In this document: positions 13,967 to 46,939 of the stretch, in pieces
Numbering within the stretch: the stretch's first letter is position 1
How the letters are laid out: each line of letters starts with the position of its first letter
Source of the DNA: an uncultured Verrucomicrobiota bacterium
GTDB taxonomy: Bacteria; Verrucomicrobiota; Verrucomicrobiia; Palsa-1439
NCBI GenBank assembly: GCA_903825435.1
Contig: CAIKAP010000081.1
Coordinates: forward strand, 13,118 to 77,117
Length of the DNA: 64,000 bases
Direction: 5' to 3'
Notes under the pieces: model-generated
Databases searched by the model: none
What the model was told of the DNA's origin: nothing
Seen by the model: the letters and a program-made list of their open reading frames with translations, nothing else
Translations under genes and position numbers: made by a program

Positions 13967-14887
13967 GTGACCGAACGACAAAAAGGAATCATCGCACTGG
14001 CGGTCGTGTTGGTGGCGTGGAGCCTGTCGAGCGTGTTCGTGAAGTACCTGATCCGCGAAGGCTACGACGCGCATACGCAGAACTTCTACCGCTACGCCGC
14101 CGGCACGCTCGTCGTGTTGCCGTTCCTGGCCCGCAGCGTCCGCCAGCGCGGCGTGAAACCGAACCGGCGGTTGCTCCTCCTGCTGTTGCTGGCGACGATT
14201 CCCAACCTGAGCCATCAGATTTGCTGGACCGTGTCGCTGAACTGGATCAACCCAGGCCTGGCGTCGTTCCTGAACAAGTCCAGCGTCCTGTTCGCCGCGC
14301 TGCTGGCGTTCGTGTTGTACGCCGAGGAACGCTGGCTGTGGCGGTCGCGCCGGTTCCTGGCGGGGCTGGGGCTGACGATTCTCGGCACCGTCGGGCTGGC
14401 GCTGCTGCGGGGCGACCTCGGCCGGGTCGAGTCGAACCTCGGCGTCGTGCTGGTGTTGATCGCGGCATTTTCGTGGGCCATGTACAGCGTCGCCGTCAAA
14501 CAGCCAACTTCGGAGGCCGGTTCGACGTTTTCGTTCGGCGTTGTCGGCCTCTACACCACGGCGGTGTTGTGGCTCGCGGCGCTGCGCTGGGGCGACCTCG
14601 GCCTGTGGTGGCGCGCCCCGTGGCACGTGAACGCCATCATGATTCTCTCCGGCGTGTTCTGCATCGGCATCGCGCACACCTGCTATTATTACGCCATGCA
14701 GCGGCTGACCGTTTCGGTGTGCGCCACGATGCTGCTGACAACGCCGGTGGGCACGCTGCTGATCTCGCGGTGGATGTTCCACGAGGAGATGACCGCCGGG
14801 CAACTCGTCTCGGGTGTGGTCCTCATCGTCGGCGCCTTCCTGACGCTGCTGGCGAAGGACAAAACTGTCGTGGCAGAACCGGTTTAG
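13967..14887 (+). CDS. EamA/DMT-family transporter
   Basis: 10-TM protein with two EamA-like halves; 306 aa. Confidence 0.6.
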   Translation: MTERQKGIIALAVVLVAWSLSSVFVKYLIREGYDAHTQNFYRYAAGTLVVLPFLARSVRQRGVKPNRRLLLLLLLATIPNLSHQICWTVSLNWINPGLASFLNKSSVLFAALLAFVLYAEERWLWRSRRFLAGLGLTILGTVGLALLRGDLGRVESNLGVVLVLIAAFSWAMYSVAVKQPTSEAGSTFSFGVVGLYTTAVLWLAALRWGDLGLWWRAPWHVNAIMILSGVFCIGIAHTCYYYAMQRLTVSVCATMLLTTPVGTLLISRWMFHEEMTAGQLVSGVVLIVGAFLTLLAKDKTVVAEPV

Positions 14888-16332
14888 CGATGCCCGCCGA
14901 GATCGGAATCGTACACGTAGCCTTCCTCGCCGTGTTCGCTGACGTCGAGGCCTTGCATCTCAAGCTCCGGTTCGACGCGGAGGTCGCCCAGTAACTTGCC
15001 GACGAGCCACGCGATGGCCAGCGTGGCACCGACCGACCATACCAACATCAGGCCGCCAGCCTTGAGCTGTTCCAGCCAGAGCGTCTTGCCGACGAGACCG
15101 TTCAGGTTCGTCGCGAGGTTCGGGTTGATCTTCGTCGAGGCAAACACCCCGGCCAGGATCGTCCCGAGCGTGCCGCCGACGGCGTGGACGCCAAACGTGT
15201 CGAGCGAATCGTCATAGCCGAACTTTGATTTCAGCTTGCTGCACGACAGGAACGTCGCCGTGCCCGCCACCGCGCCAATCAGAATCGCCGAACCGGCGCT
15301 GACAAAACCGCAGCCGGGCGTGATCGTCGCCAGACCCGCGACGGCACCGGAACAGAAGCCGAGCACGCTCGGTTTGCCGCGCGTGATGTACTCGATACCG
15401 GCCCACGCGACGCTACCGACTGCGGCGGCCAACGTGGTGGCGACAAACGCGTTCGACGCGATGCCGTCGGCCGCGACCGCGCTGCCGGCGTTGAAGCCGT
15501 ACCAGCCGACCCACAACATGCCGGTGCCAACCATGCAGAGCACCATCGAGTGCGGCGGCATCGGTTCCTTGCCGTGGCCGAGACGTTTGCCGAGGAAGAT
15601 GCAGAGCGCCAACGCCGACCAGCCGCTGGTCATGTGAACAACGATGCCGCCTGCGAAATCAATCGCCTTGATCTTGGCGTCGGGATTGGCGAGGCCGTTC
15701 ATCCAGCCGCCGTTGCCCCAGATCAGGTGCGCCGCGGGGAAATAGACGATGAACATCCAGAGCGTGCTGAACAACAGAATGGCGGAGAACTTCATCCGTT
15801 CGGCGATGGCGCCGATGATGAGCGCCGGGGTGATGATGGCGAACATGAGCTGATAGATCGCGAAGATGTTGTGCGAGACCCACGAGGCGTAGTCGGGGTT
15901 CGGCGTGGCGTCAACGTTTTTGAAGAAGGCAAATCCAAATCCGCCGAGGAAGCCGTTGCCCTTGCCGAAACAGAGGCTGTAGCCAACGGCCCACCACAAC
16001 ACCGACACCAGCCCGGCAAGGCCGAGGCATTGCGCCAGCACCGAAAGCACGTTCTTGCGGCGCACGAGGCCGCCGTAGAACAGCGCCAGCCCCGGCAACG
16101 TCATGAACAACACCAGCGCCGACGAGACCATCATCCAGCCGTTGTGGCCCGGCCCCGGCCCGGCGACCTTGGTTGCCGTGGTGGTGCGGGCCGTGTTGTT
16201 GAGGTAAGCCTCAATGTCGGCGACGCGCTGTTCGAGCGTCGGTTCCTTCGCGGGCGCGTCCGCGGCGCGAAGCGTGTTGGCAAAACACAGTGCGAGCAAC
16301 AAAACGACACAATACCGGCGTATCAAGTGCAT
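14884..16332 (-). CDS. amt: ammonium transporter with N-terminal signal peptide/coiled-coil extension
   Basis: Amt signatures (GGIVVHMTSGWSALALCIFLGKR); start set at MHLIRRY (ATG 16330-16332, AGGAG upstream) rather than ORF start 16416. Confidence 0.85.
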   Translation of the reverse strand: MHLIRRYCVVLLLALCFANTLRAADAPAKEPTLEQRVADIEAYLNNTARTTTATKVAGPGPGHNGWMMVSSALVLFMTLPGLALFYGGLVRRKNVLSVLAQCLGLAGLVSVLWWAVGYSLCFGKGNGFLGGFGFAFFKNVDATPNPDYASWVSHNIFAIYQLMFAIITPALIIGAIAERMKFSAILLFSTLWMFIVYFPAAHLIWGNGGWMNGLANPDAKIKAIDFAGGIVVHMTSGWSALALCIFLGKRLGHGKEPMPPHSMVLCMVGTGMLWVGWYGFNAGSAVAADGIASNAFVATTLAAAVGSVAWAGIEYITRGKPSVLGFCSGAVAGLATITPGCGFVSAGSAILIGAVAGTATFLSCSKLKSKFGYDDSLDTFGVHAVGGTLGTILAGVFASTKINPNLATNLNGLVGKTLWLEQLKAGGLMLVWSVGATLAIAWLVGKLLGDLRVEPELEMQGLDVSEHGEEGYVYDSDLGGHR

Positions 16333-16365
16333 AACAAAACTCTCCTTCGTCAGGAGGCCGTCGGA

Positions 16366-16382
16366 ATGCAATACCTGTGCCA
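16366..16382 (-). promoter_or_regulatory. sigma-54 (-24/-12) promoter for amt
   Basis: minus strand reads CTGGCACAGGTATTGCATT = TGGCAC-N5-TTGCA, about 45 bp upstream of the amt ATG. Confidence 0.7.
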
Positions 16383-16471
16383 GTCGCAATGGTGTGGTTT
16401 TCAACCTCCACCACAACAGTCACTTCCGGTTTTGCGATGAACACACACCAACATCGCTGGTCGTCGAAAAC

Positions 16472-16496
16472 TGACCAGCGTGGTCAAATCACGCCA
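16472..16496. promoter_or_regulatory. palindromic upstream site TGACCAGCGTGGTCAAATCACGCCA (putative enhancer-binding-protein UAS)
   Basis: TGACCA-N3-TGGTCA inverted repeat ~90 bp upstream of the sigma-54 promoter; related copies at 18424, 29767, 36667, 43288. Confidence 0.5.
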
Positions 16497-16508
16497 ATAC
16501 CGTTTCGC

Positions 16509-18285
<1,777 letters not shown>

Positions 18286-18319: not shown

Positions 18320-18335
18320 GCACCGCCTGTGCCAG
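18320..18335 (-). promoter_or_regulatory. sigma-54 promoter for amt (second paralog)
   Basis: minus strand CTGGCACAGGCGGTGCA = TGGCAC-N5-GTGCA (GG/GC correctly spaced). Confidence 0.6.
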
Positions 18336-18382: not shown

Positions 18383-18450
18383 CAACCGGAATAAAACCGG
18401 AACATGACGCCGGTGCGGTCAACTAACCAACGTGGTCAATTTCCGACACC
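18383..18450. repeat. 68-bp composite repeat: GTTCCGG element (rc) + TAACCAACGTGGTCAATTTCCGACACC upstream site; left copy of kdp-flanking direct repeat
   Basis: about 91% identical to 29727-29792; lies in the divergent amt/kdpA intergenic region. Confidence 0.75.
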
Positions 18451-18523
18451 GTTAACAACTTTTTAGCACTTCCGCTCCGCCTTTTAATTATGCGGCTCGC
18501 GCGTGCCGTGTCACGTTCGTTCC

Positions 18524-20176
18524 ATGAAACAGAACGAAGTCTTTCAACTGCTGGCGTTCTTCGGACTGCTCGTCGCGCTCGCACCGTTGCTTGGTGCGTA
18601 CATGGCGCGGGTTTTCGATGGCCAGCCACGTAAATTGGAGCGGCTGATCTACCGGCTCGGCGGCGTACGTGCTGACGAGGAGATGTCGTGGAAACGATAT
18701 TTTGCCGCGGTGTTGCTGTTCAATGTCGTCGGTATAGTCACGCTGATGGCCATCGAGATGACGCAGGCGTGGCTGCCATTCAACCCTCAGCATCTCCCGA
18801 ATGTTCCGTGGGCGCTGGCGTTGAACACCGCCATCAGTTTCATCACGAACACCAACTGGCAGGCGTACTCTGGTGAAAACACGATGAGTTACTTCACTCA
18901 GATGGCCGGGCTGGCGGTGCACAATTTCCTCAGCGCCGCCACCGGCATCGCAGTGTTGCTGGCGCTGGCGCGCGGCCTGAAACGCGCCTCGGCACAGTCA
19001 CTCGGCAGTTTCTGGGTGGACCTCACGCGCGCGACACTCTACGTGCTGCTGCCGTTGTCATTGGTCCTGTCTGTCATATTAGTCTCACAAGGCGTCGTAC
19101 AAAATCTCGCACCCTACCGGACCGTGAAGACACTCGAAGGCGCAGAACAAGTCATTCCCGGCGGCCCGGCCGCATCTCAGGTTGCGATCAAACAACTCGG
19201 CACCAACGGCGGGGGCTTCTTCGGCCAGAACAGCGCGCATCCGTTCGAGAATCCGACGCCGCTCAGCAACTTCGTCGAGATGTTCGGCTTGCTGATTGTG
19301 GCGGCATCGCTGGTGTACGCGTTCGGCTTGCTCGTCGGCGACAAACGGCATGCCTGGTGTCTGTTCGGCGTGATGTTGGTCCTGTTGGTTGGCAGCTTCG
19401 CGGTGGCGTGGTGGGCCGAAAGCCAGTCCGCCGGCAACATGGAAGGCAAGGAACAACGCTTCGGCGTCATGAACAGCGTGCTCTTCGCCGTCGCCACCAC
19501 AGGCACCTCTTGTGGCGCAGTAAACGCGATGCACGACAGTTTCACGCCGCTGGCGGGGCTGATGCCGATGTGGAACATGATGCTCGGCTGCATCGCGTTT
19601 GGCGGCGTCGGCGCCGGTCTGTATGGAATGATGATGCACGTGCTGTTGACGGTGTTCATCGCCGGGCTGATGGTCGGGCGGACGCCGGAATATCTCGGCA
19701 AGAAAATCCAGGCGTGGGAAGCGACGTGGGCCGTCGTGGCGATTCTGATCCCGAACTTCCTGATTCTGATCGGCTCGGCGGTCGCGTGCAGCGTCGCGAC
19801 CGGGCTTGCCGGCCTGAACAACGCCGGGCCGCACGGCTTGAGTGAAATCTTTTACGCCTACGCCTCCGCCTCGAACAACAACGGCAGCGCCTTTGCCGGC
19901 CTGAACGTGAACACCTACTTCTACAATCTCACGCTCGGCGGCGCGATGTTCCTCGGCCGGTTCGGCGTCATCCTCGCCGTGCTCGCCATTGCCGGTCACC
20001 TTGCCGCGAAGAAGACCGTACCGGCGTCACCGGGAACGTTCCCGACCAACGGACTGACGTTCGCCTGTGTGCTGTTCGGCGTCATCATCATCATCGGCGC
20101 GCTGACGTTCTTCCCCGCGCTTTGCCTCGGGCCAATCGTCGAGCATGGACTCATGCTGACCGGAAGGAATTTCTAA
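18524..20176 (+). CDS. kdpA: potassium-transporting ATPase subunit A
   Basis: aligns along its length with E. coli KdpA ([35 protein letters not shown]); start at MKQNEV preferred over ORF start 18503. Confidence 0.9.
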
Positions 20177-22230
20177 TGAGTACCAAAGTCGAAATCAAAT
20201 ACTCCGAGCTGGTCCGCCACGCGGTCATTGACGCCTTCAAGAAGCTCGACCCGCGCGACGAGATCAAGAACCTGGTCATGTTCGTCGTCTATGTTGGCGC
20301 GATCCTGAGCACCGGCGTTTTGTTCCGGAATTGTTCCGGCTTCAATATCCAGATCTGCCTCTGGCTCTGGTTTACGTGCCTCTTCGCGAATTTCGCCGAG
20401 GCGATGGCCGAGGGCCGCGGCAAGGCGCACGCCGACGCGTTGAAGAAGATGCGGACGAAGACGCTGGCCCGCAAACGCGACGGCCAGCGAGTCAACGCCG
20501 CCGAGCTGCGCAAGGGCGACGAAGTTGTCTGCGAAGCCGGTGACACCATCCCCGCCGACGGCGAAATCATCGAAGGCATCGCGACCGTTGACGAATCCGC
20601 CATCACCGGCGAGTCCGCGCCCGTCATCCGCGAAAGCGGCGGCGACCGCAGCGCCGTCACCGGTGGCACGCGCGTCATCAGCGACAAGATCATCATTCGC
20701 GTCACCGCCGATGCCGGCAACTCGTTCCTCGACCGGATGATTTCGATGATCGAAGGCGCGCGCCGGCAAAAAACACCGAACGAAATCGCGTTGAACATCC
20801 TTCTCGTCAGCCTGACCGCACTGTTTATCCTCGTCGTCATCACGTTGCCGGCGTTCGCCCGGTACAACGAGAAGGCCGCGAGCCAGACCGGTGTGGTGCT
20901 CACAACGCTGCCGGTGTTGCTGGCACTGATTGTGTGTTTAATCCCGACGACCATCGGCGGCCTGCTCAGCGCTATTGGCATTGCCGGCATTGACCGGTTG
21001 ATGCGGCGCAACGTGCTCGCCACCAGCGGACGCGCCGTCGAGGCGGCGGGTGACGTGGACGTGTTGCTGCTCGACAAGACCGGCACGATCACACTCGGCA
21101 ACCGGATGGCGACGGAATTCATTCCTGCGCCCAGTGTGAAGATCGAGGAACTCGCCGACGCCGCGCAACTCGCGTCGCTTGCCGACGAAACGCCGGAAGG
21201 ACGTTCCATCGTTGTGCTCGCGAAGGAAAAACACGGACTCCGTGGCCGCGAAGTCGCCGAGCCGCACGCCGTGCCGGTGCCGTTCACGGCGCAGACCCGG
21301 ATGAGCGGCGTGGATTTTGGCGACGGCACGCGCCGCATCCGCAAAGGGGCGACCGAGGCCGTCCAGGCGTTTGTCGAATCGCAAGGCGGTGTCATGCCGA
21401 AAGCTGTGACGCAAATCGTCGAACAGATTTCGCGCAGTGGCGGCACGCCGCTAGTCGTGTGCGACGGCAAGAACGTGCTTGGTGTCATCCAACTCAAGGA
21501 CGTTGTCAAAGGCGGCATCAAGGAGCGTTTCGCCCAGCTCCGCAAAATGGGCGTGCGCACCGTGATGATTACCGGCGACAACCCGCTGACCGCCGCCGCC
21601 ATCGCCGCCGAGGCGGGCGTGGATGATTTCATCGCGCAGGCGAAACCCGAAGACAAACTCGCCCGCATCCGTCACGAGCAAGCTGGCGGCAAATTGATCG
21701 CGATGATCGGCGACGGCACGAACGACGCTCCTGCGTTGGCGCAAGCCGATGTCGGCGTCGCGATGAACACCGGCACGCAAGCCGCCCGCGAAGCTGGGAA
21801 CATGGTGGACCTCGACTCGAATCCGACAAAGCTGATTGAGGTCGTCGAGATCGGCAAGCAACTCTTGATGACGCGCGGCGCGTTGACGACGTTTAGCATC
21901 GCCAACGACGTGTCAAAATATTTCGCAATCCTGCCGGCAATGTTCGGCGTACTCTACGCGACGACTGCGCTGGGTAAAGGCCCGCTCGACAAGTTGAACG
22001 TCATGCACCTGCACTCGCCGGAGAGCGCAATCCTTAGTGCGGTGATTTTCAACGCGCTGATCATCGTCGCGCTGATTCCGCTGGCGTTGCGCGGCGTGAA
22101 GTACCAGCCGCTCGGCGCCGCCGTAATCCTGCGCAAGAACATGCTGATCTACGGCGTCGGCGGCCTCATCATTCCGTTCATCTTCATCAAACTGATCGAC
22201 ATCGCGCTCGTCGCATTGAGGCTCGCATGA
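20176..22230 (+). CDS. kdpB: potassium-transporting ATPase subunit B (P-type ATPase)
   Basis: [21 protein letters not shown] motifs; ATG overlaps kdpA stop (TAATGA). Confidence 0.9.
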
Positions 22231-22769
22231 AACTACTCATCCAATCCATTTTGTTGACGGTCATTTTCACCATCATCACCGGCATCCTGTATCCGCTGGC
22301 GATTACCGGCATCGCACAAGTCGCGTTTCCCCGGCAAGCCAACGGCGACGTGACGCTGCTGGCGCAGAAATTTACCGGCGATAAATACTTCTGGCCGCGT
22401 CCGTCGGCCTGCGATTACGCGACCGTGCCGTCCGGCGCCAGCAACCTCGGCCCGACCAGCGCAGCGCTGCAATCCAACGTCGCCGCGCGCGTGGCGTTGC
22501 TCGGCACGAATGCACCCGCCGACATGCTGTATGCTTCCGGCAGTGGGCTTGACCCGCACATCAGTCCGGAGGCGGCACGCTTTCAAGTTAAGCGCGTCGC
22601 GGCGGCGCGCACCGCCGAGGTCGCCAAGGTGAGCGCGCTCGTTGAAAGGTTCATCGAGCCGCTGCAGTGGGGCTTTCTCGGCGAGCCGCGTGTGAATGTT
22701 TTGAAACTAAATCTGGCGCTCGACCAACAAGAATCAGGAGGGCATCATGAAGATCAAGCCCGGCATTAA
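22227..22769 (+). CDS. kdpC: potassium-transporting ATPase subunit C
   Basis: 180 aa, N-terminal TM helix, KdpC-like; overlaps kdpB stop. Confidence 0.85.
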
Positions 22770-23667
22770 AGACGTTCTGTGGATGGCCGCCGGTGCGGCT
22801 ATCCTGCTCGTGGTCATCGTGGCGATGTTGCATTTCTACAAAGACTGGAATCCTGCTGCGCAACTCGCCTTCAAAGCCCGTCGAGGTGATCTGGTGGGAC
22901 GGATGCAATTGGACCTGGCCTCTGCCTCGGAGACGGAGAAAAGTGCGGTTCTCGCCATCACCGATGAAGAGTCACAGAAGTTCGCCGACCAAGCCCGCGC
23001 AGCGTCGGCAAAGGTGGAGCAGGAACGTCGTGAACTCGGAGAACTTCTGGCGGCAGGCGGCACGCAAGGCGAGAAGGATCTGCTGGCTCAATTCGCCACG
23101 GCTTTCGCCGAGTTTCAGCACATTGACAACGATCTGCTCGCGTTGGCGGTCAAGAACACCAACCTCAAGGCGTCCAGCCTCACGTTCGGCCCGGCCGCCG
23201 CCGCGCTGAAGGAAATGGACGCCGCGCTGGCGCGGCTCATGACCGACGACGCGAAAGTCGTGCGCCTCGCTGACGACGCACGGATCGCCGCGTGGCGGCT
23301 GCTGGCGTTGCTGCCGCCGCACATCGCCGAGGAGGACGAAAAGAAGGAAGACGCGATGGAAGCGTTGATGGCCACGGAAGATGCGCAGGTCCGTAAAAAT
23401 CTGGATATGCTCGCGGCGCTCCCGCAATTCACCAGCAATCCCGAACTGGCAACCGCCGCGGCGCGTTATGCCGAGTTCAGCAAACTCAAAACACAAATCC
23501 TCGCACTCTCCCGCGAGAACACCAACGTCCGTTCGCTGTCCATATCGCTGAATCAAAAGCGCAAGGTGACACTGGTGTGCCAGGACGCGCTGAACGCCTT
23601 GCAGCAGGCCATCCAGGCGGAACCCATCGCCGGGGTTACGTACGGAAAACCGATGAGTCCGCGTTGA
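22747..23667 (+). CDS. membrane-anchored coiled-coil hypothetical protein, translationally coupled to kdpC
   Basis: overlaps kdpC 3' end by 23 nt; single N-terminal TM then helical Ala/Leu-rich domain; no recognisable catalytic motif. Confidence 0.45.
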   Translation: MKIKPGIKDVLWMAAGAAILLVVIVAMLHFYKDWNPAAQLAFKARRGDLVGRMQLDLASASETEKSAVLAITDEESQKFADQARAASAKVEQERRELGELLAAGGTQGEKDLLAQFATAFAEFQHIDNDLLALAVKNTNLKASSLTFGPAAAALKEMDAALARLMTDDAKVVRLADDARIAAWRLLALLPPHIAEEDEKKEDAMEALMATEDAQVRKNLDMLAALPQFTSNPELATAAARYAEFSKLKTQILALSRENTNVRSLSISLNQKRKVTLVCQDALNALQQAIQAEPIAGVTYGKPMSPR

Positions 23668-23729
23668 CTGGCGGCAGTTGCAGTTACCGTCCTCTCTTTG
23701 TTGTAGATGCTTGCCTCCCGATGTGGCTT

Positions 23730-24683
23730 CTAAAGTGAGCAAAGCCAGCGCGTCAAAGAGGCGATTTGGCCTTCGTCGGTAAGGTTGGCAGCATTTTCAA
23801 TCTTACCGGATTGAAGCTGCGACCAGATTTCTTTTGCCATTTTCGTTTCGATGGCCGCGCCAATGAAGAACGTGTGGGGTTTCTGTTTGTGCTTGGCGAA
23901 CGATGTTTGGATGCGATCCAGAGCGGTGCGGGCGGTCTTCCAGTGTTCGTCCGCACCGGCAGGGTCAATGCCGCCTTTCAATTCGCCGAGTGCGATGTAG
24001 GCTGCGGCGTTGCCGTATACCTGCCGGCACAGGGCTTCGGGGGCGGAGTTGAAAAGCGACAGATCAACGTTGTTGCGAAATAACGGCACCGTCAGGTTGT
24101 AGATCAAGGTTCTGGTCTTACCATTGATCTGCCAACTCAGGCCGCGGACGTGGAGTTCTATGTCGGCGTCATCTTCTGGCGTGTCCGACCAGACGTTGCT
24201 CTCACCGTGCAACCACCGGTAGCCGTTGCCCGCTAATTTGAGGTGCGCGATGATCGAGCGCGTAAGTTTGCACTGTGCCATGAAACCGCCAGCATTTCGC
24301 ATTGAGCCGCCCAACGTATCGCCGCGTGTGAGCAAGAATCGGAAGACAAGTTCCTCAACAAAATTCATACCGGCTGGTTCGAGAAAATTCGCGATTAGCT
24401 CTTCGACGGCTTTGCGCTTGTCGGCCTTTTGTAGGTGGTTCGCAGCCTTGTCGGAAATGCCGGCTGCCGTTACCAGTCCGGATTGGATTGCTGGAATCTT
24501 CAGGAGGTCAGACGGTCGCTGTGCTTGAGATGCAGCAGCCTTCAAGGCACGCGCCTGAACCACATAGGGAGTCGCTCGGCGGTTCTTCTCCAATGCGAGC
24601 GCGACAAAGCCGGCACGAACGGCTTCATAGGTGGTTTCAAGATCAGCCGCAGACTTCAGGTGGGAGCGATAGGGTTTGTTCAT
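23730..24683 (-). CDS. putative Type II restriction endonuclease (partner of adjacent methyltransferase)
   Basis: 317 aa, no recognised family; tail-to-head with the MTase 3 bp away; reduced GC; assignment is by context. Confidence 0.45.
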
Positions 24684-24686
24684 GGT

Positions 24687-26276
24687 TCAACGTTTCCGCC
24701 AGACGTACACGCATTTTCGCAGCGGGTCGCGTCCGTGTGCGCCCATTTGTTGGCTGCTGTTTCCTTTTCCGTTTGGCAAAACCAAAATGCTTTCGATGTT
24801 GAAGCCGAGTTGTGCGGCCATTTCCGAGAGAATAAGGTCCACCGCAATGCTCGCACCGGCATAGCGCACGTTGTCATTGACCATGATAAGCGGCGCGCCA
24901 CGTTTCAACACGCGGACACTCTCGGCAATGACACAGGCCATTTCGTAGAAGTACCCTCGCACCATACGAGGAATGCCGGTATTGTTCAGCAGGTCGAGTT
25001 CTCGCTGAGAATCCAGATACCGCAGGATGCGTTGAAGCAGGGGGAGTTCGTTTGCCACGGCCAGAGCGTGTTTCCACTTTGGATTGAGTGCAAGCATGTC
25101 CTTCTCACGGTTCTCGACGGTGCAACTTAACATAGCCTGTCGCAGTTTAACCAAGCCAGCCTCGTCCACGCCGAGCAACGCAAGTTCCAACGCGTATGTG
25201 CGGGTGTAGTCGTAGCGGTTGCAGTAGGGCGGCGATGTGAGAATACAGTCGTAAGCAGCAGCTTTGAACGTCGGCATGATCTCCAAACAAGAACCGCTGT
25301 GCAAAACCACGTCGGCGCGCGAGTGTGTCGTGAAAAACAAGTCTTCGGGAATTGTTGCTGCTCCGAGATCGTCAACGATCTCGCCGAGTTTGCCTTTGAT
25401 GGCTTCATCGAAAGGTTGAATCCGTCCTTTGTCGAAGATCTTCTTCCCGATACGACGACCGGAACGATAATCCCATCGCAGATACTGCCCATCCTTGCGC
25501 GTAAAACCGACCGACTCAAGAACGCAAAGCAATGCGAACCGTAGAATCGCCTTCACAACGTCGTTCTCATGCTCGGAAGCGGCCAAGTATCTCCCGATGG
25601 CTTTGACTGTCGCCGGTGGGTACGCCCCCTTCGTGATGCGTAGTTCGTTAATCGAACGGCATTCCTTGGAGTGTTGCCACGGTTGCCGAACCTTCCATCG
25701 TGTGAGCGTTTCGATGTCTGGAGGACGGAACTCCAAATCAATCATCTGCTTGGTTTCGATGATGGTCTGCCCGATTGGCAGAAGTTCGATTCCTTCCGCT
25801 TTCATTCCCATCGCGCCAGCCGCAAACAAGGCCGTGCCACTCCCTGCAAATGGATCGAGCAGGACGCCGGAGGACAAATGGAAACGATTCAGAAAATGCT
25901 CAACCAGTCCGGCGGAAAACGCTTCCTTGTATTTGTACCACCGGTAAACGGCGCGGCTTTTGTTCGCCTGAAAGCTCACGAGCGAGCGCGTCAGTTCGTT
26001 GGCGACAACGATCTTGTGTCGCCAACGACGCTCCAAATCAGAACTTAAGGCGTCAATCTCCCGCAGTGCCGGGGAATCCACAACCTCGCCGTTCTTGGGC
26101 TCGCGCGCATCATCTAAAACGGCCGGAGACGCCAGCGCAAAAGATACAGACTGCACCTTCCTTGGCGGCTGTTCCATCGTTTGGGTGCCGAGCGTTTCCT
26201 CACGCACACGGGGTGTGCGGCGCTTCTTCGGCAAATACGTGACTTGTTTCCTCGGCATCAGCGCGGAGTATGCCAA
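24687..26276 (-). CDS. alpha-class DNA methyltransferase (N4-cytosine or N6-adenine; motif I ... TRD ... SPPY)
   Basis: motif I LLDPFAGSGT about 280 aa before motif IV ILTSPPYCNRYDYT; true start may be internal (MEQPP). Confidence 0.75.
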   Translation of the reverse strand: MAYSALMPRKQVTYLPKKRRTPRVREETLGTQTMEQPPRKVQSVSFALASPAVLDDAREPKNGEVVDSPALREIDALSSDLERRWRHKIVVANELTRSLVSFQANKSRAVYRWYKYKEAFSAGLVEHFLNRFHLSSGVLLDPFAGSGTALFAAGAMGMKAEGIELLPIGQTIIETKQMIDLEFRPPDIETLTRWKVRQPWQHSKECRSINELRITKGAYPPATVKAIGRYLAASEHENDVVKAILRFALLCVLESVGFTRKDGQYLRWDYRSGRRIGKKIFDKGRIQPFDEAIKGKLGEIVDDLGAATIPEDLFFTTHSRADVVLHSGSCLEIMPTFKAAAYDCILTSPPYCNRYDYTRTYALELALLGVDEAGLVKLRQAMLSCTVENREKDMLALNPKWKHALAVANELPLLQRILRYLDSQRELDLLNNTGIPRMVRGYFYEMACVIAESVRVLKRGAPLIMVNDNVRYAGASIAVDLILSEMAAQLGFNIESILVLPNGKGNSSQQMGAHGRDPLRKCVYVWRKR

Positions 26277-26304
26277 CGCGGGCCGGTTGGCGCAAGCTTG
26301 CGTT

Positions 26305-26327
26305 ATGTTCCGGTTTTGTTCCGGCTG
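26305..26327 (+). repeat. GTTCCGG direct-repeat element (ATGTTCCGGTTTTGTTCCGGCTG); opens 15-codon uORF 26305-26352 (MFRFCSGCFLAFGLR)
   Basis: between MTase start and kdpD ATG (26371); uORF stop TAA at 26350-26352. Confidence 0.8.
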
Positions 26328-26370
26328 CTTTCTTGCGTTCGGACTTCGTTAAGTACATACTCCCGTCACC

Positions 26371-29025
26371 ATGACCGAGCCGCAACGACCGGATCCGGAC
26401 AAGCTGTTGGCGTCGCTCCAGCGCGCGGAGGCGAAACGTCAGCGGGGACGGCTGAAGATTTTCTTCGGCATGTGTCCGGGTGTCGGCAAAACCTACGCGA
26501 TGCTGGAGAGCGCGCGCCGGTTGGTGGCGCAGCGCGAGGATGTCGTGGTCGGGCTGGTCGAGACGCACGGCCGGACGGAGACGGCGGCGTTGCTGGAAGG
26601 TCTGACTATCGCACCACGCAAGAAAATTCCCTATCGCGGCGTGACGCTGGAGGAAATGGATCTCGACTGGATTCTCCAGCGACGTCCGCAGGTCGCAGTC
26701 GTGGACGAACTGGCTCACACGAACGCGCCGGGTTCGCGTCACGTGAAGCGGTACCAAGACGTACTCGAATTGCTGGATGCCGGGATTGATGTGTTGACGA
26801 CGTTGAATGTCCAGCACATCGCCAGCCGGGCGGACACGGTGCGGCAGATTTCGGGCGTGGCGGTGCACGAGACGGTGCCGGACACGGTGTTCGAGGCGGC
26901 GGATGAGATCGAGCTGGTGGATTTGTCGGTCGAGGATTTGCGGAAGCGGCTGGAGGAGGGGAAGGTTTATCTCGGCGAGCGCGCGATGACGGCGGCGGAG
27001 AATTTCTTCCGGGAAGGCAACCTGAGCGCGCTGCGCGAAATGTCGTTGCGGCTGACGGCCGAGCGCGTGGACCAACAGGTGCGCGAGTCGCGCGAGGACC
27101 AGCAGGTTGCGGAAGTCTGGAAGGCAGGCGAACGGTTGATGGTCGCGGTGAGCAGCAGCCCGGCGTCGGCGCGGTTGATCCGGTGGACGCGACGGATGGC
27201 GTTTGCGTTGAAGGCGCCGTGGCTGGCGGTGTGTGTGAAGCCGACGCGCAAGCTGACGGAGGACGCCGAGCGGCAGTTGACGAGCAACCTCGAAGTGGCG
27301 CGCGAACTCGGCGCGGAAGTCGTGATGACCAGCGGCGACGATATCGTCGAGGCGCTGTTGCGCGTGGCGCGCGAGCACAACGTCACGCAGATTGTCGTCG
27401 GCCAATCCGGACAACATCCGCTTATCGAGATGTTGCGTGGCGGCATCGTGAACCGGCTGACGCGGCTGGCGGGCGACATTGACGTGTACGTCGTGCGCTC
27501 GGAAAGCGGGCAACAACGGTGGCGGTGGCGTCTGCCCGAGCCGTCGTTGCGGTCGCCGCCGCGCGAGTACGCGATCAGCGCGGCGACGGTGGCGGGGTTG
27601 ACGCTGGTGAACTGGTTTATCGCGCCGGTGGCGGGTTACCAGGCGGTGGCGTTGTTCTATCTGCTGGCAATCGTGGTGCTGGCGCTGGCGCTCGGACGCG
27701 GTCCGGTGATGCTGGCGGCGCTGTTGGGCGCGCTATTGTGGGATTACCTGTTCATCCCGCCGTTGTTTACGTTCTACATCTCGAAGTTTTCCGACATCAC
27801 GATGTTGGCGGCGTACTTCGTCGTGGCGCTGGTGACCGGCCACCTGACGTCGCGGCTGCGCGCGCAACAGATCGCGGAGCGGCGCCGCGAAGAGCGCGCG
27901 ACGGCGTTGTACGAGCTGGCGCGCGACGTGGCGGGCGCGGCAAATCTCAGCGAGGTGATCGGCTTGGCGTCGCGGCAGGTGGGGGCGTTGTTCGGTTGCG
28001 ATCTGGCGGTGTTGTTGCCCACGGCCAACGGCCTCGCCGCGCACGCGGCCGGCAGCGCGATGGTGGACGAGAAGGAGCGTGGCGTGGCGCAATGGGCGCT
28101 CGATCACCGGCAGACGGCGGGCCGGTTCACGGACACGCTGCCGTCGTCGCGCGGGATGTACGTGCCGTTGCGGGCGGCGAGCGGCTGCGTCGGCGTGATG
28201 GGCGTGTTGTCGCGCGAGGAGCGGGAGTTGACGCTGGAGCAGCGGGATTTGCTGGAGACGTTCGCGTCGCAGATCGCGATGGTGATCGAACGGGAACGGT
28301 TGCAGACGGAGGCGCACGGCGCGGAGGTGCTGTCGCAAGCGGAGCAATTGCACCGGACGTTGTTGAACTCGGTGTCGCACGAGTTGCGGATTCCAATCGC
28401 CGCTGTGCTGGCGGCGGCGGAAGGCTTGGAGAAACGGGTCGCGCCGACGGAGAATTCGCTCGTCGGCGAAATCCGCGAGGCGGCGCTGCGATTGAACGCG
28501 CTCGTGCGAAACCTGCTGGACATGGCGCGGCTGGAGTCGGGGATGTTGAAGCCGAAGATGGAATGGTTCGAGGTCGGCGAACTGGTCAACGCGGTCGTGG
28601 AGGAACATTTCAAATTGTTCGAGCATCACGAGCTGTCGTTGTCGCTGCCGGACGGGCTGCCGTTGGTGTACGGCGATTTTGGATTGCTGCAACAAGCGCT
28701 CGGTAACCTGCTCCAGAACGCGCGCCGCTACACGCCTTCCGGCACCGAGATCAAAATCTCGGCGGCGGTGGACGAGCGGGAGTTGTTGTTGAGCGTCGCC
28801 GACAACGGTCCCGGCTTCGGCGTGGACAATCCGGAAATGTTGTTCCAGAAATTCCAGCGCGGCGCGGGCGCGGCGCCGGGCGGAGCGGGGCTTGGTCTGT
28901 CGATTGTAAAAGGTTTTGTCGAAGCGCACGGCGGGCGCGTCGAGGCGCGCAATCGCGACGACGGCGGTGCGCAGGTGACGATCCGGTTGCCGCTGCCGCA
29001 ACAACCGAAGGAGCTGGCGACATGA
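26371..29025 (+). CDS. kdpD: KdpD sensor histidine kinase
   Basis: N-terminal KdpD domain (KIFFGMCPGVGKTYAML), Usp-like domain, 4 TM, HisKA (LNSVSHELRIPI) and HATPase (GLGLSIV) regions. Confidence 0.9.
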   Translation: MTEPQRPDPDKLLASLQRAEAKRQRGRLKIFFGMCPGVGKTYAMLESARRLVAQREDVVVGLVETHGRTETAALLEGLTIAPRKKIPYRGVTLEEMDLDWILQRRPQVAVVDELAHTNAPGSRHVKRYQDVLELLDAGIDVLTTLNVQHIASRADTVRQISGVAVHETVPDTVFEAADEIELVDLSVEDLRKRLEEGKVYLGERAMTAAENFFREGNLSALREMSLRLTAERVDQQVRESREDQQVAEVWKAGERLMVAVSSSPASARLIRWTRRMAFALKAPWLAVCVKPTRKLTEDAERQLTSNLEVARELGAEVVMTSGDDIVEALLRVAREHNVTQIVVGQSGQHPLIEMLRGGIVNRLTRLAGDIDVYVVRSESGQQRWRWRLPEPSLRSPPREYAISAATVAGLTLVNWFIAPVAGYQAVALFYLLAIVVLALALGRGPVMLAALLGALLWDYLFIPPLFTFYISKFSDITMLAAYFVVALVTGHLTSRLRAQQIAERRREERATALYELARDVAGAANLSEVIGLASRQVGALFGCDLAVLLPTANGLAAHAAGSAMVDEKERGVAQWALDHRQTAGRFTDTLPSSRGMYVPLRAASGCVGVMGVLSREERELTLEQRDLLETFASQIAMVIERERLQTEAHGAEVLSQAEQLHRTLLNSVSHELRIPIAAVLAAAEGLEKRVAPTENSLVGEIREAALRLNALVRNLLDMARLESGMLKPKMEWFEVGELVNAVVEEHFKLFEHHELSLSLPDGLPLVYGDFGLLQQALGNLLQNARRYTPSGTEIKISAAVDERELLLSVADNGPGFGVDNPEMLFQKFQRGAGAAPGGAGLGLSIVKGFVEAHGGRVEARNRDDGGAQVTIRLPLPQQPKELAT

Positions 29026-29693
29026 GTCCGGTGGCGTTGATCATCGAGGACGAAATCCAGATGCGGCGCCTGTTGCGCGTCGGCCTGGAAGGCGCGGGCT
29101 ACAAAGTCGGCGAGGCGTCGGACGGCCAGCAGGGATTGCAGGAGATCGTGTACCAGCGACCCGACGTGGTGCTGCTCGATTTGGGATTGCCCGACATGGA
29201 CGGCGTCGAGGTGCTGAAACGGTTGCGCGAGTGGTCGCATGTGCCGGTGGTGGTGTTGACAGTGCGCGAGGACGAACACGACAAGGTCCGTGCGCTCGAC
29301 GCGGGCGCGGACGATTACCTGACGAAACCGTTCAGCACGGCGGAACTGCTGGCGCGGTTGCGGGCCGTGCAACGGCGCGCGCCCGAGGCGCAGGAGGAAC
29401 CGGTGTTTGTGTGCGGTGATCTCACGATGGATTTCGTCGCGCGAACGGTGGCGGTGAAGGGCAGGGAGGTGCATCTGACGGCGACGGAGTATTCGCTATT
29501 GCACGAACTGGTTCGCCACGCAGGTAAGGTGGTGACGCACAAACAACTGTTGCGCGCCGTCTGGGGACCGCAGGCCGAGACGCAGTCGCAGTACCTGCGC
29601 GTCTACATCACGCACGTGCGCCAGAAGTTGGAGTCCGCGGGCCGTCTGATCCGCAACGAGCCTGGTGTCGGCTACAGGTTGCTCACCGGCTAG
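29022..29693 (+). CDS. kdpE: KdpE OmpR-family response regulator
   Basis: receiver domain (VLLDLGLPDMDG) + winged-helix C-terminus; overlaps kdpD stop. Confidence 0.9.
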   Translation: MSPVALIIEDEIQMRRLLRVGLEGAGYKVGEASDGQQGLQEIVYQRPDVVLLDLGLPDMDGVEVLKRLREWSHVPVVVLTVREDEHDKVRALDAGADDYLTKPFSTAELLARLRAVQRRAPEAQEEPVFVCGDLTMDFVARTVAVKGREVHLTATEYSLLHELVRHAGKVVTHKQLLRAVWGPQAETQSQYLRVYITHVRQKLESAGRLIRNEPGVGYRLLTG

Positions 29694-29726
29694 ACACGGA
29701 TTGGTACCAGAAACCGGTAAAAACGC

Positions 29727-29792
29727 AGCCGGAACAAAACCGGAACATGACGCCGGTGCAGTCAACTAACCAGCGTGGTCAATTCCCGACAC
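29727..29792. repeat. right copy of 68-bp composite repeat (GTTCCGG element rc + TAACCAGCGTGGTCAATTCCCGACAC)
   Basis: about 91% identical to 18383-18450, same orientation, 34 bp after kdpE stop; no sigma-54 promoter or gene follows it. Confidence 0.75.
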
Positions 29793-29817: not shown

Positions 29818-30837
29818 TTAGCTTTGGCCGCTTTCTGCCTGCCGTGTAATCGCCGGTAACTGAAGCCTCTCGATTCGTTGCATGCCGAGAGGTTGGGGAC
29901 TTCCACCCGCCAGTACGCGACCGACGTTTTCTTGAATTGATACGACATCCCACTGAATGGTTTGATAGATCACATAGCGATCCTGCCACACATGCACGTG
30001 GTCGCGCATTTCCTTGACAAGAAGCTTTCTCGCTTTGTCGGACTGTTGAATCGCTTCTTCAAGCGGGACTTTGTAGGTCGGACTTGTGATGTAATTCAAC
30101 ATCTGTGTTGCCACGCGGTTCTTTTCTTCACCGTCCAGCTTCGCCTTGGTCATTTCGACGATGTGAGCGCGGCAAAGATGCGCGAGGGGCACAACTCCGA
30201 GTGGTGCAACGATCAGGACGTTGCCTTCACGCCCCAAACCGGTAAACCCCTTCTTGATACCCGTCGTGATTAGAATCGCGAAGTGAGCCTCACGAATTCG
30301 CTTTGCCTCCGCTGTTTGGTGAATGTGTGACGGCAAAATGCTGGGTGTTCGTTTGCACTCGTAGATAATCACACCAGCCTGACGCCCTTGAAAGATGACA
30401 GCATGGAGAATATCCCCTCCCTTGCCCTTGTGCTCGATTCGATCCTGAGGAAACTCCTTCTGTAGGCGTCTGCACAGTGTATCTTCAAACTCCAAGCCTT
30501 CTGTTTGCGGCGTCGTCCCTTTGGCCAATTGCGCGATGCGCGCATTCGCAATCTCCAACTTCTTCTGTAGTCCAGCCGTCAACCGTTCCTGCCGCTTTCT
30601 CTCCACCAGTGCTCCCTTCTTTTGCCCGTCTGCGTCTGCCTCTTTTAATCGTTGGCGTGTTTGGGAGAGTTGCTTCTTCAAGGAACTCGTGGCTTGTTGT
30701 GCCTGATGCAGCAGGCGATTGGCCTTCTCAATGTCTGCCTTCTGAGCCTTCTCCCTCTCGGCCTGAATATGCAGAACCGCTTCGTACTTGCCCTTCGCTA
30801 ACGTGCTTCCACAGAGCGGACACTTGTATGTCTTCAT
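29818..30837 (-). CDS. DUF2130-family protein (N-terminal zinc ribbon, coiled coil, C-terminal PD-(D/E)XK-like nuclease core)
   Basis: start MKTYKCPLCGS (GAGGAG RBS; ATG at 30835-30837); coiled-coil middle; D...ECK motif (GGDILHAV...IIYECKR); GC about 50%. Confidence 0.65.
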   Translation of the reverse strand: MKTYKCPLCGSTLAKGKYEAVLHIQAEREKAQKADIEKANRLLHQAQQATSSLKKQLSQTRQRLKEADADGQKKGALVERKRQERLTAGLQKKLEIANARIAQLAKGTTPQTEGLEFEDTLCRRLQKEFPQDRIEHKGKGGDILHAVIFQGRQAGVIIYECKRTPSILPSHIHQTAEAKRIREAHFAILITTGIKKGFTGLGREGNVLIVAPLGVVPLAHLCRAHIVEMTKAKLDGEEKNRVATQMLNYITSPTYKVPLEEAIQQSDKARKLLVKEMRDHVHVWQDRYVIYQTIQWDVVSIQENVGRVLAGGSPQPLGMQRIERLQLPAITRQAESGQS

Positions 30838-31112
30838 AGTCTCCTCGTGTAAGAAGGTTGCGACCGCTGGAGCGGTCTTGACCAATCAAAACCACTTCTG
30901 GCGAACGCTTTTGACGGGACTCGTGAATAGTCCGGAGATTTACTCCTGACACCGAACACTCGTCGGTGTTCCGGCAACACCGTATCTGCTGGCGTTTGTA
31001 GCAGTGTGGGCGCTTGAGCATTCTGTCCAGCGGCTTCTTCCTTCGTTTTCATTCCGCCACTTTATGCGAGGACATGGCAGCATAAAACAGACACGCGGTC
31101 TGAGGGGATGTC

Positions 31113-31883
31113 CTATTTTTTTGAGCGCGGCCGGCCGCGTTTTTTGAAGTGCAATCCGATTCGCCGACAGAGTTGCTGTACCATTTGCTGGTCTGCGAGT
31201 TCCAGTTCCGGTGTCTTGCCGCGCATTGAGGGAATGCGCGCCGTAAGCCAATGATACAACTCAGTCGTGCTACCGAGTGCTGAGACTTCCCACCAGTTTT
31301 CAAGCAGCGCCGAATAGATCGGTAAAGCGGTCGTGTGTCTGGCCGGCCTGCCCTGATCATCTAGAAGCTTAACGTGCAGTCCGCGAGCAAAGCCATCAAA
31401 CCACGCAATCGCGTGTTGGAAGGAAAAGAACTTCGCAGAGCCTATGCGCTGTTTGAGCGATTCAATCTGTTCTTCGTCCCTGAATAGTTTGTGTTCCTCT
31501 GTTGGGTGAAACTCTGAAGCCATCAAACAACCAGCATAAAAGCCTTCTTTTCGGCTCAAACTTTCTGGTGTCGCGTCATCTTCAATCTCCCATTTCGGCA
31601 ATGGAAACATCGCTTGGATTCTTTGACGAACAGTGACGACCCATTCAGGAACTGTTCGCTCCGACCAGAAGAGAAGCTCTTCCAACTCCTTTGGAACACA
31701 GTTTTCTCGTTTTATGTCCTCAAGAATGTCGTTCGGGAACATCGAGCGGATCATGGCGGACATCCATCGCACCAAGTAAAGCAAGCCCTCTATTTCGCGC
31801 GGGGGTCGTACCCCACGCCGCTTACAGTCCTCCGCAATCTCAATAACCTTGCGGAGTGCATCTTTGCTGGTGTCGTCCGACAT
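31113..31883 (-). CDS. hypothetical protein (no recognisable domain), co-oriented with the DUF2130 gene
   Basis: 256 aa, low GC, no TM; a GC-rich hairpin and stop codon lie at its 3' end. Confidence 0.5.
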   Translation of the reverse strand: MSDDTSKDALRKVIEIAEDCKRRGVRPPREIEGLLYLVRWMSAMIRSMFPNDILEDIKRENCVPKELEELLFWSERTVPEWVVTVRQRIQAMFPLPKWEIEDDATPESLSRKEGFYAGCLMASEFHPTEEHKLFRDEEQIESLKQRIGSAKFFSFQHAIAWFDGFARGLHVKLLDDQGRPARHTTALPIYSALLENWWEVSALGSTTELYHWLTARIPSMRGKTPELELADQQMVQQLCRRIGLHFKKRGRPRSKK

Positions 31884-31916: not shown

Positions 31917-31985
31917 AAGCTGGAGTCCGCGAGCCGCCTGATCCGCAACGAGCCGGGCATCGGCTACCGGCTGTTGGCGGACTAA
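31917..31985 (+). pseudogene. orphan 3' fragment of an OmpR-family response-regulator gene (kdpE-like tail KLESASRLIRNEPGIGYRLLAD*)
   Basis: about 80% nucleotide and 18/22 amino-acid identity to the kdpE 3' end at 29625-29693; no receiver domain upstream. Confidence 0.7.
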
Positions 31986-34126: not shown

Positions 34127-34177
34127 GCGGATTCGGCATCGGCGGGGAAGATAGTCCCCGCCGCTGTTTTGTCAAGC

Positions 34178-36526: not shown

Positions 36527-36546
36527 CCGGAACATTTCCGGAACAT
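36527..36546 (-). repeat. GTTCCGG element (rc: ATGTTCCGGAAATGTTCCGG) in porin 5' leader
   Basis: lies between the putative sigma-54 promoter and the porin ATG; same 24-nt string as at 35044-35067. Confidence 0.75.
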
Positions 36547-36560
36547 CGGCAGACCACATT

Positions 36561-36577
36561 CGCAGTGCCCGTGCCAG
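36561..36577 (-). promoter_or_regulatory. putative sigma-54 promoter for porin-amt operon
   Basis: minus strand CTGGCACGGGCACTGCG (TGGCACG-N4-CTGCG; GG and GC correctly spaced). Confidence 0.45.
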
Positions 36578-36666
36578 CAGTGGAGAGGGTTTCCGTAAAC
36601 GCTTGGCGTGCAATTCACTGTGGGAAGCGACAAAGTTCAGCCGGTGCAGAAGAAGACAACAGCGGT

Positions 36667-36690
36667 AGCCAGTCTGGTCAAATCACGCCA
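36667..36690. promoter_or_regulatory. UAS-family site AGCCAGTCTGGTCAAATCACGCCA
   Basis: 16/16 identity with TGGTCAAATCACGCCA at 16481-16496. Confidence 0.5.
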
Positions 36691-46917: not shown

Positions 46918-46939
46918 ATGTTCCGGTTTTGTTCCGGCT
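46918..46939 (+). repeat. GTTCCGG element (ATGTTCCGGTTTTGTTCCGGCT)
   Basis: in the convergent gap between the rhodanese gene and the PP2C gene. Confidence 0.8.

Follow-up and report, generated by a model that had tools for sequence, protein, structure and literature searches.

Why does the same short regulatory sequence stand on both sides of a kdp operon, when only one of its two copies has a promoter to serve? The question arises from a window of 64,000 nucleotides (nt) on contig CAIKAP010000081.1; all coordinates without a contig name refer to this stretch. The source organism is an uncultured member of the Verrucomicrobiota and is known from metagenome contigs only. The sequence, in the following called module M, occurs once upstream of the ammonium transporter gene amt2 (left copy, M_L) and once behind kdpE (right copy, M_R). 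An earlier interpretation of the window, the sequence-only reading, had explained the pair by a mobile kdp cassette. In our analysis the promoterless copy is best read as an ordinary recombination scar rather than as the trace of a kdp cassette that jumped. The elements which frame the question are:

18383-18449, minus strand: M_L, left copy of the module in the enhancer region of amt2, found by repeat search and matched by orthologous copies in front of amt2 in L018 and L019
18503-22769, plus strand: kdpA, kdpB and kdpC (Pfam KdpA, E1-E2 ATPase and KdpC; GC content at third codon positions, GC3, 0.72-0.80)
26371-29693, plus strand: kdpD (26371-29025) and kdpE (29022-29693), assigned by Pfam
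29726-29792, minus strand: M_R, promoterless right copy of the module, between the stop codons of kdpE and of a DUF2130 gene

The two copies form a direct repeat of 67 nt with 62 matching bases (93%); they are co-oriented and their starts lie 11,343 nt apart. A direct repeat of about 68 bp flanking kdp had been recognized in the sequence-only reading, and both the repeat and its orientation were confirmed here, with an identity of 93% instead of about 91% and a gap of 20 nt instead of 19 between the heptamer and the TAACCA element. The likeness between M_L and M_R breaks off abruptly at both ends. Searches with the two halves of the module, AACCGGAACATGACGCCGGTGC and GTCAACTAACCARCGTGGTCAATTYCCGACAC, allowing up to three mismatches, gave no further sites in the 64 kb (0 expected from 100 shuffles). 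With two copies in this stretch, full-length M does not behave as a dispersed repeat of the repetitive extragenic palindrome (REP), miniature inverted-repeat transposable element (MITE) or uptake-sequence type. A composite of the two sub-elements of M described below, a tandem and a palindrome at the M spacing, was searched in 241 million metagenome records, which yielded only the amt2 orthologues of two sister species. The junction kdpE-32 nt-M_R-DUF2130 gene was found again in independent assemblies which derive from several samples and assemblers (L001-L006, L020-L024) and is therefore not an assembly artefact. The junction amt2-M_L-kdpA was seen only in the window and in its 85-kb source contig.

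What module M does can be deduced from the left copy, which sits in the spacer between the divergent genes amt2 and kdpA. The elements compared for this purpose are:

18424-18438: near-palindrome of M_L, TGACCACGTTGGTTA, which precedes the tandem when read towards amt2
18386-18403: tandem of M_L, GTTCCGGTTTTATTCCGG, 20 nt past the palindrome in the direction of amt2
18320-18334, minus strand: promoter of amt2, -24/-12 (sigma-54) type, TGGCACAGGCGGTGC, 104 nt past the palindrome start
16861-18285, minus strand: amt2, ammonium transporter (Pfam PF00909)
16368-16486, minus strand: upstream region of amt1; its palindrome (16472-16486), TGACCAGCGTGGTCA, is perfect, and a sigma-54 promoter follows at 16368-16382 in the 104-nt geometry
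36562-36680, minus strand: upstream region of the porin-amt3 operon with palindrome (36666-36680) and sigma-54 promoter (36562-36576) in the 104-nt geometry

The promoter pattern TGGCAC-N6-TGC has three matches in the window and all of them are located upstream of amt-type genes. Five amt-type promoters were examined, those of amt1, amt2 and porin-amt3 in the window and those of amt2 in L018 and L019, and each has a TGACCA-N3-TGGTCA-like palindrome whose start precedes TGGCAC by exactly 104 nt. When an upstream activating sequence (UAS) is defined as a dyad 80-150 nt upstream of a -24/-12 promoter, M_L contains one, whereas M_R lacks the promoter. M matches the copies upstream of amt2 in the sister species L018 and L019 at 59-63 of 67 positions, compared with about 82-85% identity in the amt2 coding DNA and 72-79% in the spacer down to the promoter, and is thus conserved above the neutral level in orthologous promoters. 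Since it is kept in orthologous amt2 control regions, M is a constrained, single-copy part of the amt2 control region and neither a dispersed repeat nor a kdp element. Judged by geometry and conservation, M is the distal enhancer (UAS) part of a predicted sigma-54-dependent amt2 promoter. The sequence-only reading had already placed the left copy within the sigma-54 upstream region of amt2, which agrees with the palindrome 104 nt upstream of TGGCAC and with the retention of M in both sister species.

The palindrome is likely the binding site of an NtrC-type, nitrogen-responsive enhancer-binding protein; this step is predicted because the rigid 104-nt geometry and the dyad symmetry coincide with a CCA-N3-TGG core that is common with the enteric NtrC consensus, TGCACCA-N3-TGGTGCA. 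The closest known counterpart is the NtrC-type UAS of the enteric glnAp2 promoter, where a dyad is likewise found some 100 nt ahead of a GG-N10-GC promoter of nitrogen-assimilation genes, with the same core and a fixed distance to the promoter. The two differ in the half-site, which is TGACCA here and not GCACCA, in the presence of a single dyad per promoter, in that the binding protein is only a predicted one here, and in the TGTTCCGG tandem which lies between dyad and promoter at amt2. Upstream of amt1 this heptamer tandem is absent, and at porin-amt3 it is located downstream of the promoter (36527-36544). The window yielded no activator gene; in L025, a more distant relative, a GAF/sigma-54-activator gene adjoins the amt cluster. 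Irrespective of the kdp question, the clade therefore offers a candidate nitrogen-regulator site, TGACCA-N3-TGGTCA, in rigid 104-nt geometry at its sigma-54 amt promoters.

The right copy retains both sub-elements of the module:

29767-29781: palindrome of M_R, TGACCACGCTGGTTA
29729-29746: tandem of M_R, GTTCCGGTTTTGTTCCGG
29694-29725, no strand: s32, unique spacer of 32 nt that separates M_R from the kdpE stop, with a putative novel joint at 29725/29726

M_R lies between two convergent gene ends. A sigma-54 promoter was found neither at 104 nt nor elsewhere around it, and scans for sigma-70-like and terminator-like sites were negative as well, so that the earlier statement that the right copy has no promoter or gene to serve holds. 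The homology of M_R to the amt2 region ends right after the tandem. From this outline M_R is a putative orphan enhancer, severed from its promoter exactly at the tandem end. The spacer s32 shows no likeness to the amt2 promoter region (860 of 2000 shuffles scored equally well) and recurs neither in the window nor in the loci with which it was compared. As a separate candidate function, M was considered as an RNA element, terminator or promoter. Folding z-scores of -0.5 and -1.7 were not significant, Rfam at the gathering threshold reported a c-di-AMP riboswitch only and nothing at M, and together with the site scans these results led to the rejection of all three.

To the right of M_R a second repeat pair and a foreign island become visible:

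29818-31883, minus strand: island I, composed of the DUF2130 gene (29818-30837) and a gene for a protein of 256 amino acids (aa; 31113-31883); GC 0.51-0.55
29625-29693, plus strand: E3a, last 22 codons and stop of the functional kdpE, partner of E3b
31917-31985, plus strand: E3b, relic of a kdpE 3' end, which encodes KLESASRLIRNEPGIGYRLLAD followed by a stop; identical to E3a at 55 of 69 positions
31982-34148, minus strand: gene of an APC-superfamily permease (31982-34006), preceded by a c-di-AMP riboswitch (34006-34148); conserved as the neighbour of kdpE on its right

About 2.2 kb separate the relic E3b from the functional kdpE upstream of it, and the stop codons of E3b and of the permease gene overlap. 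E3a and E3b have a 17-nt identical core, CTGATCCGCAACGAGCC, in common, and the 33 nt to the left of E3b score no better against kdpE than shuffles do. In the relative L013, whose KdpD is 77% identical, an intact kdpE is directly convergent with the same permease gene and abuts it. Because the intact gene abuts the permease in this way, E3b marks the end of an ancestral kdp operon. Beyond permease and riboswitch follow amt3 and the porin gene.

The island spans about 2.2 kb, and its DUF2130 open reading frame (ORF) has a GC3 of 0.59 compared with about 0.8 in the neighbouring genes. The DUF2130 protein carries a PD-ExK-like motif, IIYECK, and the 256-aa protein has no family match. The closest homologues of the island (83-84% identity on the amino acid and 78-80% on the DNA level) have different surroundings: in L034 they immediately follow kdpA, in the place where kdpB ought to start, and in L035 they follow the gene of a CopA-like ATPase. 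Neither M nor the tandem was detected at these junctions, and a recombinase gene was not found in the island. Composition and scattered occurrence point to the pair of genes being a small mobile unit which is foreign by composition. In all three places, behind kdpE, kdpA and the CopA-like gene, the unit adjoins the 3' end of a gene connected with a P-type ATPase system. A defence role was also tried for the island and rejected, since PADLOC gave weak coiled-coil-type matches to LmuB and NCBIfam nothing specific.

The kdp operon itself shows none of this foreignness. Its genes have a GC3 of 0.72-0.85 like the flanks, and the deviating genes are those of a restriction-modification (R-M) pair (0.63-0.64) and the DUF2130 ORF. 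In the kdp interval between 18.4 and 29.8 kb no integrase, transposase or recombinase Pfam domain was present in ORFs of at least 200 aa on both strands. For this survey Pfam was run on the ten gene-sized ORFs of 14.9-29.7 kb, in which Kdp, 4HB and R-M domains were found; the other ORFs of at least 200 aa overlap them. Among the marks of a mobile element the kdp block thus has the flanking direct repeats, but neither a mobility gene nor a deviant composition nor near-identical repeats.

The relatives also connect kdp with its present neighbours. In L019, M is followed by CGTTAAC, the same seven bases as at M_L, then by about 170 nt of unidentified DNA and a kdpE pseudogene (1068-1660) which has no start, internal deletions and a stop, while kdpFABCD are lost. 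This arrangement implies that the adjacency of amt2, M and kdp predates the split of the species and that kdp was lost in L019 by a deletion from the distal M edge. The next gene after the pseudogene in L019 is a porin-like one, homologous to window 46950-47684. L018 has a single M and no kdp gene within the next 3 kb, after which its contig ends. To the right of M it carries a large plus-strand ORF of more than 1000 aa with the methyltransferase motif NPPW, from which it follows that the right flank of M gathers foreign DNA; minus-strand ORFs in the same place were dismissed as antisense artefacts, the true gene being on the plus strand. In L015 the kdp operon sits between other genes. A single module in a relative without kdp had been proposed as confirmation of an insertion. 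The relatives give a mixed answer to this: one M with no kdp gene in 3 kb does occur in L018, and in L019 the kdpE pseudogene after the single M indicates a loss rather than an empty site. Altogether kdp itself looks native and its neighbours on both sides look ancestral, with island I and the R-M genes as the apparently mobile parts.

The order of the locus is promoter, M_L, kdp, kdpE 3' end, 32 nt, M_R, island, kdpE 3' relic and permease. Two independent repeat pairs are hence interleaved and co-oriented, M_L (18383), E3a (29625), M_R (29726) and E3b (31917). We read the locus as two versions of one segment joined in tandem, M-kdp-kdpE 3' end and M-island-kdpE 3' end. Parts of such versions occur alone in relatives, namely kdpE-permease in L013, amt2-M-kdpE pseudogene in L019 and the island inside a kdp operon in L034. 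The divergence of the two pairs is informative in this respect. M_L and M_R differ at 5 of 67 positions, and M orthologues of different species differ at 4-8 of 67; E3a and E3b are about 80% identical, and between the window and L019 the identity is 81.9% for kdpE and 81.75% for amt2. Since both pairs are as diverged as orthologues of different species, a single recombination between lineages is favoured over an in-place or target-site duplication. M_R differs from L018 and L019 at 4-5 positions and M_L at 7-8; relative to the consensus of these two species, M_R deviates at 1-2 positions and M_L has four private changes. Neutral drift for as long as the relic indicates would have produced 6-10 changes in M_R, of which at most 1-2 are seen (Poisson P = 0.017-0.0005). 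With due regard to the small numbers, this timing argues against an old in-place duplication.

A possible history starts with a kdp-less allele, which would have arisen when the island took the place of the operon, leader included, as far as codon 200 of kdpE. Selection would have preserved two pieces of the old segment in this allele: M, on which amt2 depends, and the relic, which overlaps the permease gene end. Such a filter would also account for the independent deletion in L019, which likewise begins at the M edge. Later, one recombination event between a lineage with the kdp-less allele and a lineage with an intact operon would have put the two versions in tandem. One end of this exchange would have been homologous, within amt2 or the permease gene, and the other an illegitimate join at 29725/29726. 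Homology-facilitated illegitimate recombination or the single crossover of a circularised fragment are conceivable routes. Observed directly are the repeats, the geometry of the enhancer, its conservation in orthologues, the relic, the island's foreign composition and mobility and the ancestral adjacencies; the joining event, its mechanism and its polarity are reconstructed from them. We consider this joining of two alleles somewhat better supported than an even chance would be, and place it no higher because the intermediate allele was not observed.

Several points weigh against this history. The kdp-less allele alone, amt2-M-island-relic-permease, was found in no genome and is a hypothetical intermediate. 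The samples are small; the comparison of 5/67 with 13/68 differences gives a Fisher P of 0.07, and the surplus of changes in M_L (4:0) does not reach significance. If M_R were under selection, the timing argument would be weakened and an old in-place duplication would then be possible. The spacer s32 is unlike the permease 3' end, which the ancestral layout predicts after kdpE. The genome-wide count of M rests on 64 kb, and the metagenome scan returned none of this species' own contigs. Finally, either polarity would fit, kdp regained or the island unit added. A tract edge of recombination within amt2 was sought by sliding identity against L018 and L019, without a clear break.

Other explanations of the doubled module were weighed against the same observations. 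The strict form of the sequence-only reading, an 11.3-kb kdp cassette which inserted into M with target duplication or site-specifically with M as attachment site, would explain that direct repeats bound the block exactly, that L018 has a single M without kdp in the next 3 kb, and that the location of kdp differs in L015. We nevertheless regard it as very unlikely. The ORFs of at least 200 aa in the block have no recombinase domains and the kdp genes no foreign GC3, 67 bp far exceeds the target duplications of transposases, and a fresh duplication would not differ at 5 of 67 positions like the orthologues of another species. Moreover, the relic beside the permease and the arrangement in L013 place kdp here before the event, and the pseudogene after M in L019 stands for loss. 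What survives of the proposal is its more general form, an exchange by recombination at a repeated module, which is compatible with the joining of two alleles when its polarity is a re-acquisition of kdp beside a kdp-less allele. An in-place tandem duplication of M-kdp-kdpE in one lineage, followed by replacement of the second set of kdp genes by the island and slow divergence of what remained, predicts the same interleaved repeats. M_L and M_R also have a derived base in common (CATG, compared with CGTG in L019 and TGTG in L018), which makes them weakly sisters. This course is unlikely in our view, as it needs three events (duplication, deletion and insertion), combines a kdpE 3' pair of about 80% identity with an M_R near the clade consensus (Poisson P of at most 0.017 if both are neutral) and leaves the functional M_L with four private changes and the functionless M_R with at most one. 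Besides, a duplication ending past kdpE would have copied permease sequence, which the 32 nt after kdpE are not.

Alternatively, the island could have inserted alone into the kdpE 3' end, the kdpE ends being att-like, with M_R as its cargo or as the product of a gene conversion by M_L seeded at the TGTTCCGG tandem. The mobility of the island, which resides at gene 3' ends in three species, the 17-nt identical core of the kdpE 3' pair and the insertion hot spot to the right of M (the methyltransferase-like gene of L018) all fit this scenario, and the 26-nt consensus of intergenic tandems described below could seed such a conversion. The island is, however, without recombinase, and its junctions in L034 and L035 have neither M nor tandem, which renders the scenario improbable. 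A retention of M_R for a function, as decoy or reservoir for the nitrogen activator and the tandem-binding protein or as a boundary between kdp and island, would be compatible with the other models. It accords with the clade consensus being matched better by M_R (4-5 differences from L018 and L019) than by M_L (7-8), and with the presence of M_R in every assembly of the species which covers the site. The site between convergent gene ends has no promoter at 104 nt or nearby and no predicted structured RNA (z = -0.5, -1.7), the sister species do without a second copy, and a recent event explains the conservation equally, so that we assign a function of M_R only a slim chance. A chimeric metagenome assembly of two coexisting strains with the two alleles has to be considered for an organism known from metagenome contigs only. 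Yet the joint passes through the unique 32-nt spacer instead of shared sequence, and the order kdpD-kdpE-M_R-island-relic-permease is repeated across independent assemblies from different assemblers and samples, which makes a chimera barely conceivable.

The joining of two alleles has parallels in characterized systems. In Acinetobacter, Streptococcus pneumoniae, Pseudomonas stutzeri and Escherichia coli, recombination with a homologous anchor and an illegitimate end as well as single-crossover duplications of 109-950 bp have been described (PMC3240628). Common to these events and the present locus are one homologous anchor, one non-homologous joint, the addition of DNA beside the resident copy and the doubling of a homologous segment on both sides of the insert. 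Here, in contrast, the event is deduced from its product, and the duplicated segment is a 67-bp regulatory module. A further parallel is displacement at the loci of Rhs and contact-dependent inhibition (CDI) systems and of Vibrio cholerae type VI secretion system (T6SS) effectors, where orphan 3' fragments and orphan immunity genes are left behind (PMC5361080). In both cases the incoming version stands upstream of the resident one, the displaced remnants have short repeated gene ends, and the repeats are diverged like alleles of different strains. The kdp locus is no toxin-immunity locus, though; what was displaced here is an enhancer module plus 22 response-regulator codons, and these remnants go back to a single event without an array. 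The locus illustrates that a regulatory module can stand twice around an operon without the operon being mobile. Short displaced remnants, an enhancer and 22 codons, would here record a past loss of kdp and its rejoining beside a c-di-AMP-controlled permease in an uncultured Verrucomicrobium, which has little consequence for biology at large.

One component of M is, unlike the full module, widely dispersed. The tandem TGTTCCGG-N3-TGTTCCGG with its 11-bp period occurs in the 64 kb as 11 exact 18-mers (2711, 20322, 26307, 29729, 35044, 36527, 39273, 46920, 52826, 56910, 63664) and two copies with one mismatch (612 and 18386), on both strands. Within the window the tandem alone therefore qualifies as a dispersed repeat at many unrelated loci. 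About half of the copies are non-coding, while 92% of the window is coding, and the intergenic ones, whose 26-nt consensus is CGTcATGTTCCGGTTTTGTTCCGGCTg, are often placed between convergent genes. Coding tandems fall into variable protein stretches, where they encode VPEMFR, VPDLFR and LFRNCSG; in kdpB the window has VLFRNCSG and L015 has VTIREPSS. Tandems also mark the edges of three low-GC islands (26307, 29729, 36527/39273), and the one at 46920 coincides with a variable junction at which homology to L019 resumes. In more than 100 kb of more distant relatives no tandem was found, and literature which mentions GTTCCGG together with Verrucomicrobia yielded primer sequences only.

An abundant DNA-binding protein may recognize the tandem, or the tandem may act as an uptake-signal-like word. 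It resembles the DNA uptake sequence (DUS) of Neisseria and the uptake signal sequence (USS) of Pasteurellaceae in being a lineage-restricted short word, hugely over-represented and without strand polarity, which is enriched between genes, especially convergent ones, and also in tolerant coding parts. It differs from them in its build, two 7-8-mers with a period of 11 bp, as would suit a dimeric DNA-binding protein, and in its density of about 1 per 5 kb, lower than that of DUS or USS. One could go further and regard the tandem as a lineage-specific, genome-wide protein-binding element which promotes or channels the uptake or recombination of foreign DNA, with the orphan M persisting as such a site and viral octamer arrays suggesting that the binding protein came from a mobile element; this extension is rather doubtful. 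The viral arrays in question are an iteron-like one in contig L037 (3966-4058) with seven GTTCCGG heptamers and one in L038 (400-450) with five TGTTCCGG octamers, at a spacing of 10-11 bp. The array of L037 is followed by AT-rich DNA, adjoins a gene for a 984-aa Toprim-domain protein and looks like a replication origin. The third of the low-GC islands (36735-39203, GC 0.48-0.53) encodes one 822-aa protein without match in Pfam, NCBIfam or PADLOC and has tandems on both sides. As a by-product of the kdp question, this very abundant TGTTCCGG tandem is possibly useful to others.

The remaining features of the region concern the interior of the kdp operon and the neighbouring transport genes:

22747-23667, plus strand: gene for a four-helix-bundle (4HB_MCP-like) protein between kdpC and kdpD, also present in L017
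23730-26276, minus strand: R-M island with BsoBI-type endonuclease and methyltransferase, GC 0.54-0.56, GC3 0.63-0.64, without counterpart in L017
16509-16895, minus strand: P-II-like ORF, a call which rests on the orthologous ORF in L018
14884-16416, minus strand: amt1, paralogue of amt2, recognized from DNA repeat families

The R-M pair is an insertion, since kdpC, the 4HB gene and kdpD are all present in L017 and the pair is missing; its low GC and its absence between the 4HB gene and kdpD in L017 uphold the earlier view that it arrived later in the locus. The extra gene between kdpC and kdpD is 4HB_MCP-like in the window and in L017 (915-1769), and in L015 (8369-8866) it encodes a Usp-domain protein. 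A scan of genome contigs for KdpD gave distant histidine kinases only. The c-di-AMP riboswitch in front of the APC permease scores 71 bits, and its position beside kdp suggests that the permease is a putative KimA-like potassium importer. More distant amt2 homologues (P0122, P0124, P0126, P0128) stand in contexts without M and without an adjoining kdp operon. The genes amt1 and amt2 are tandem paralogues with about 75-81% DNA identity and a spacing of about 1955 nt (14884-18285), and L018 (2373-5829) has the amt2-type copy only, with the same neighbours on either side.

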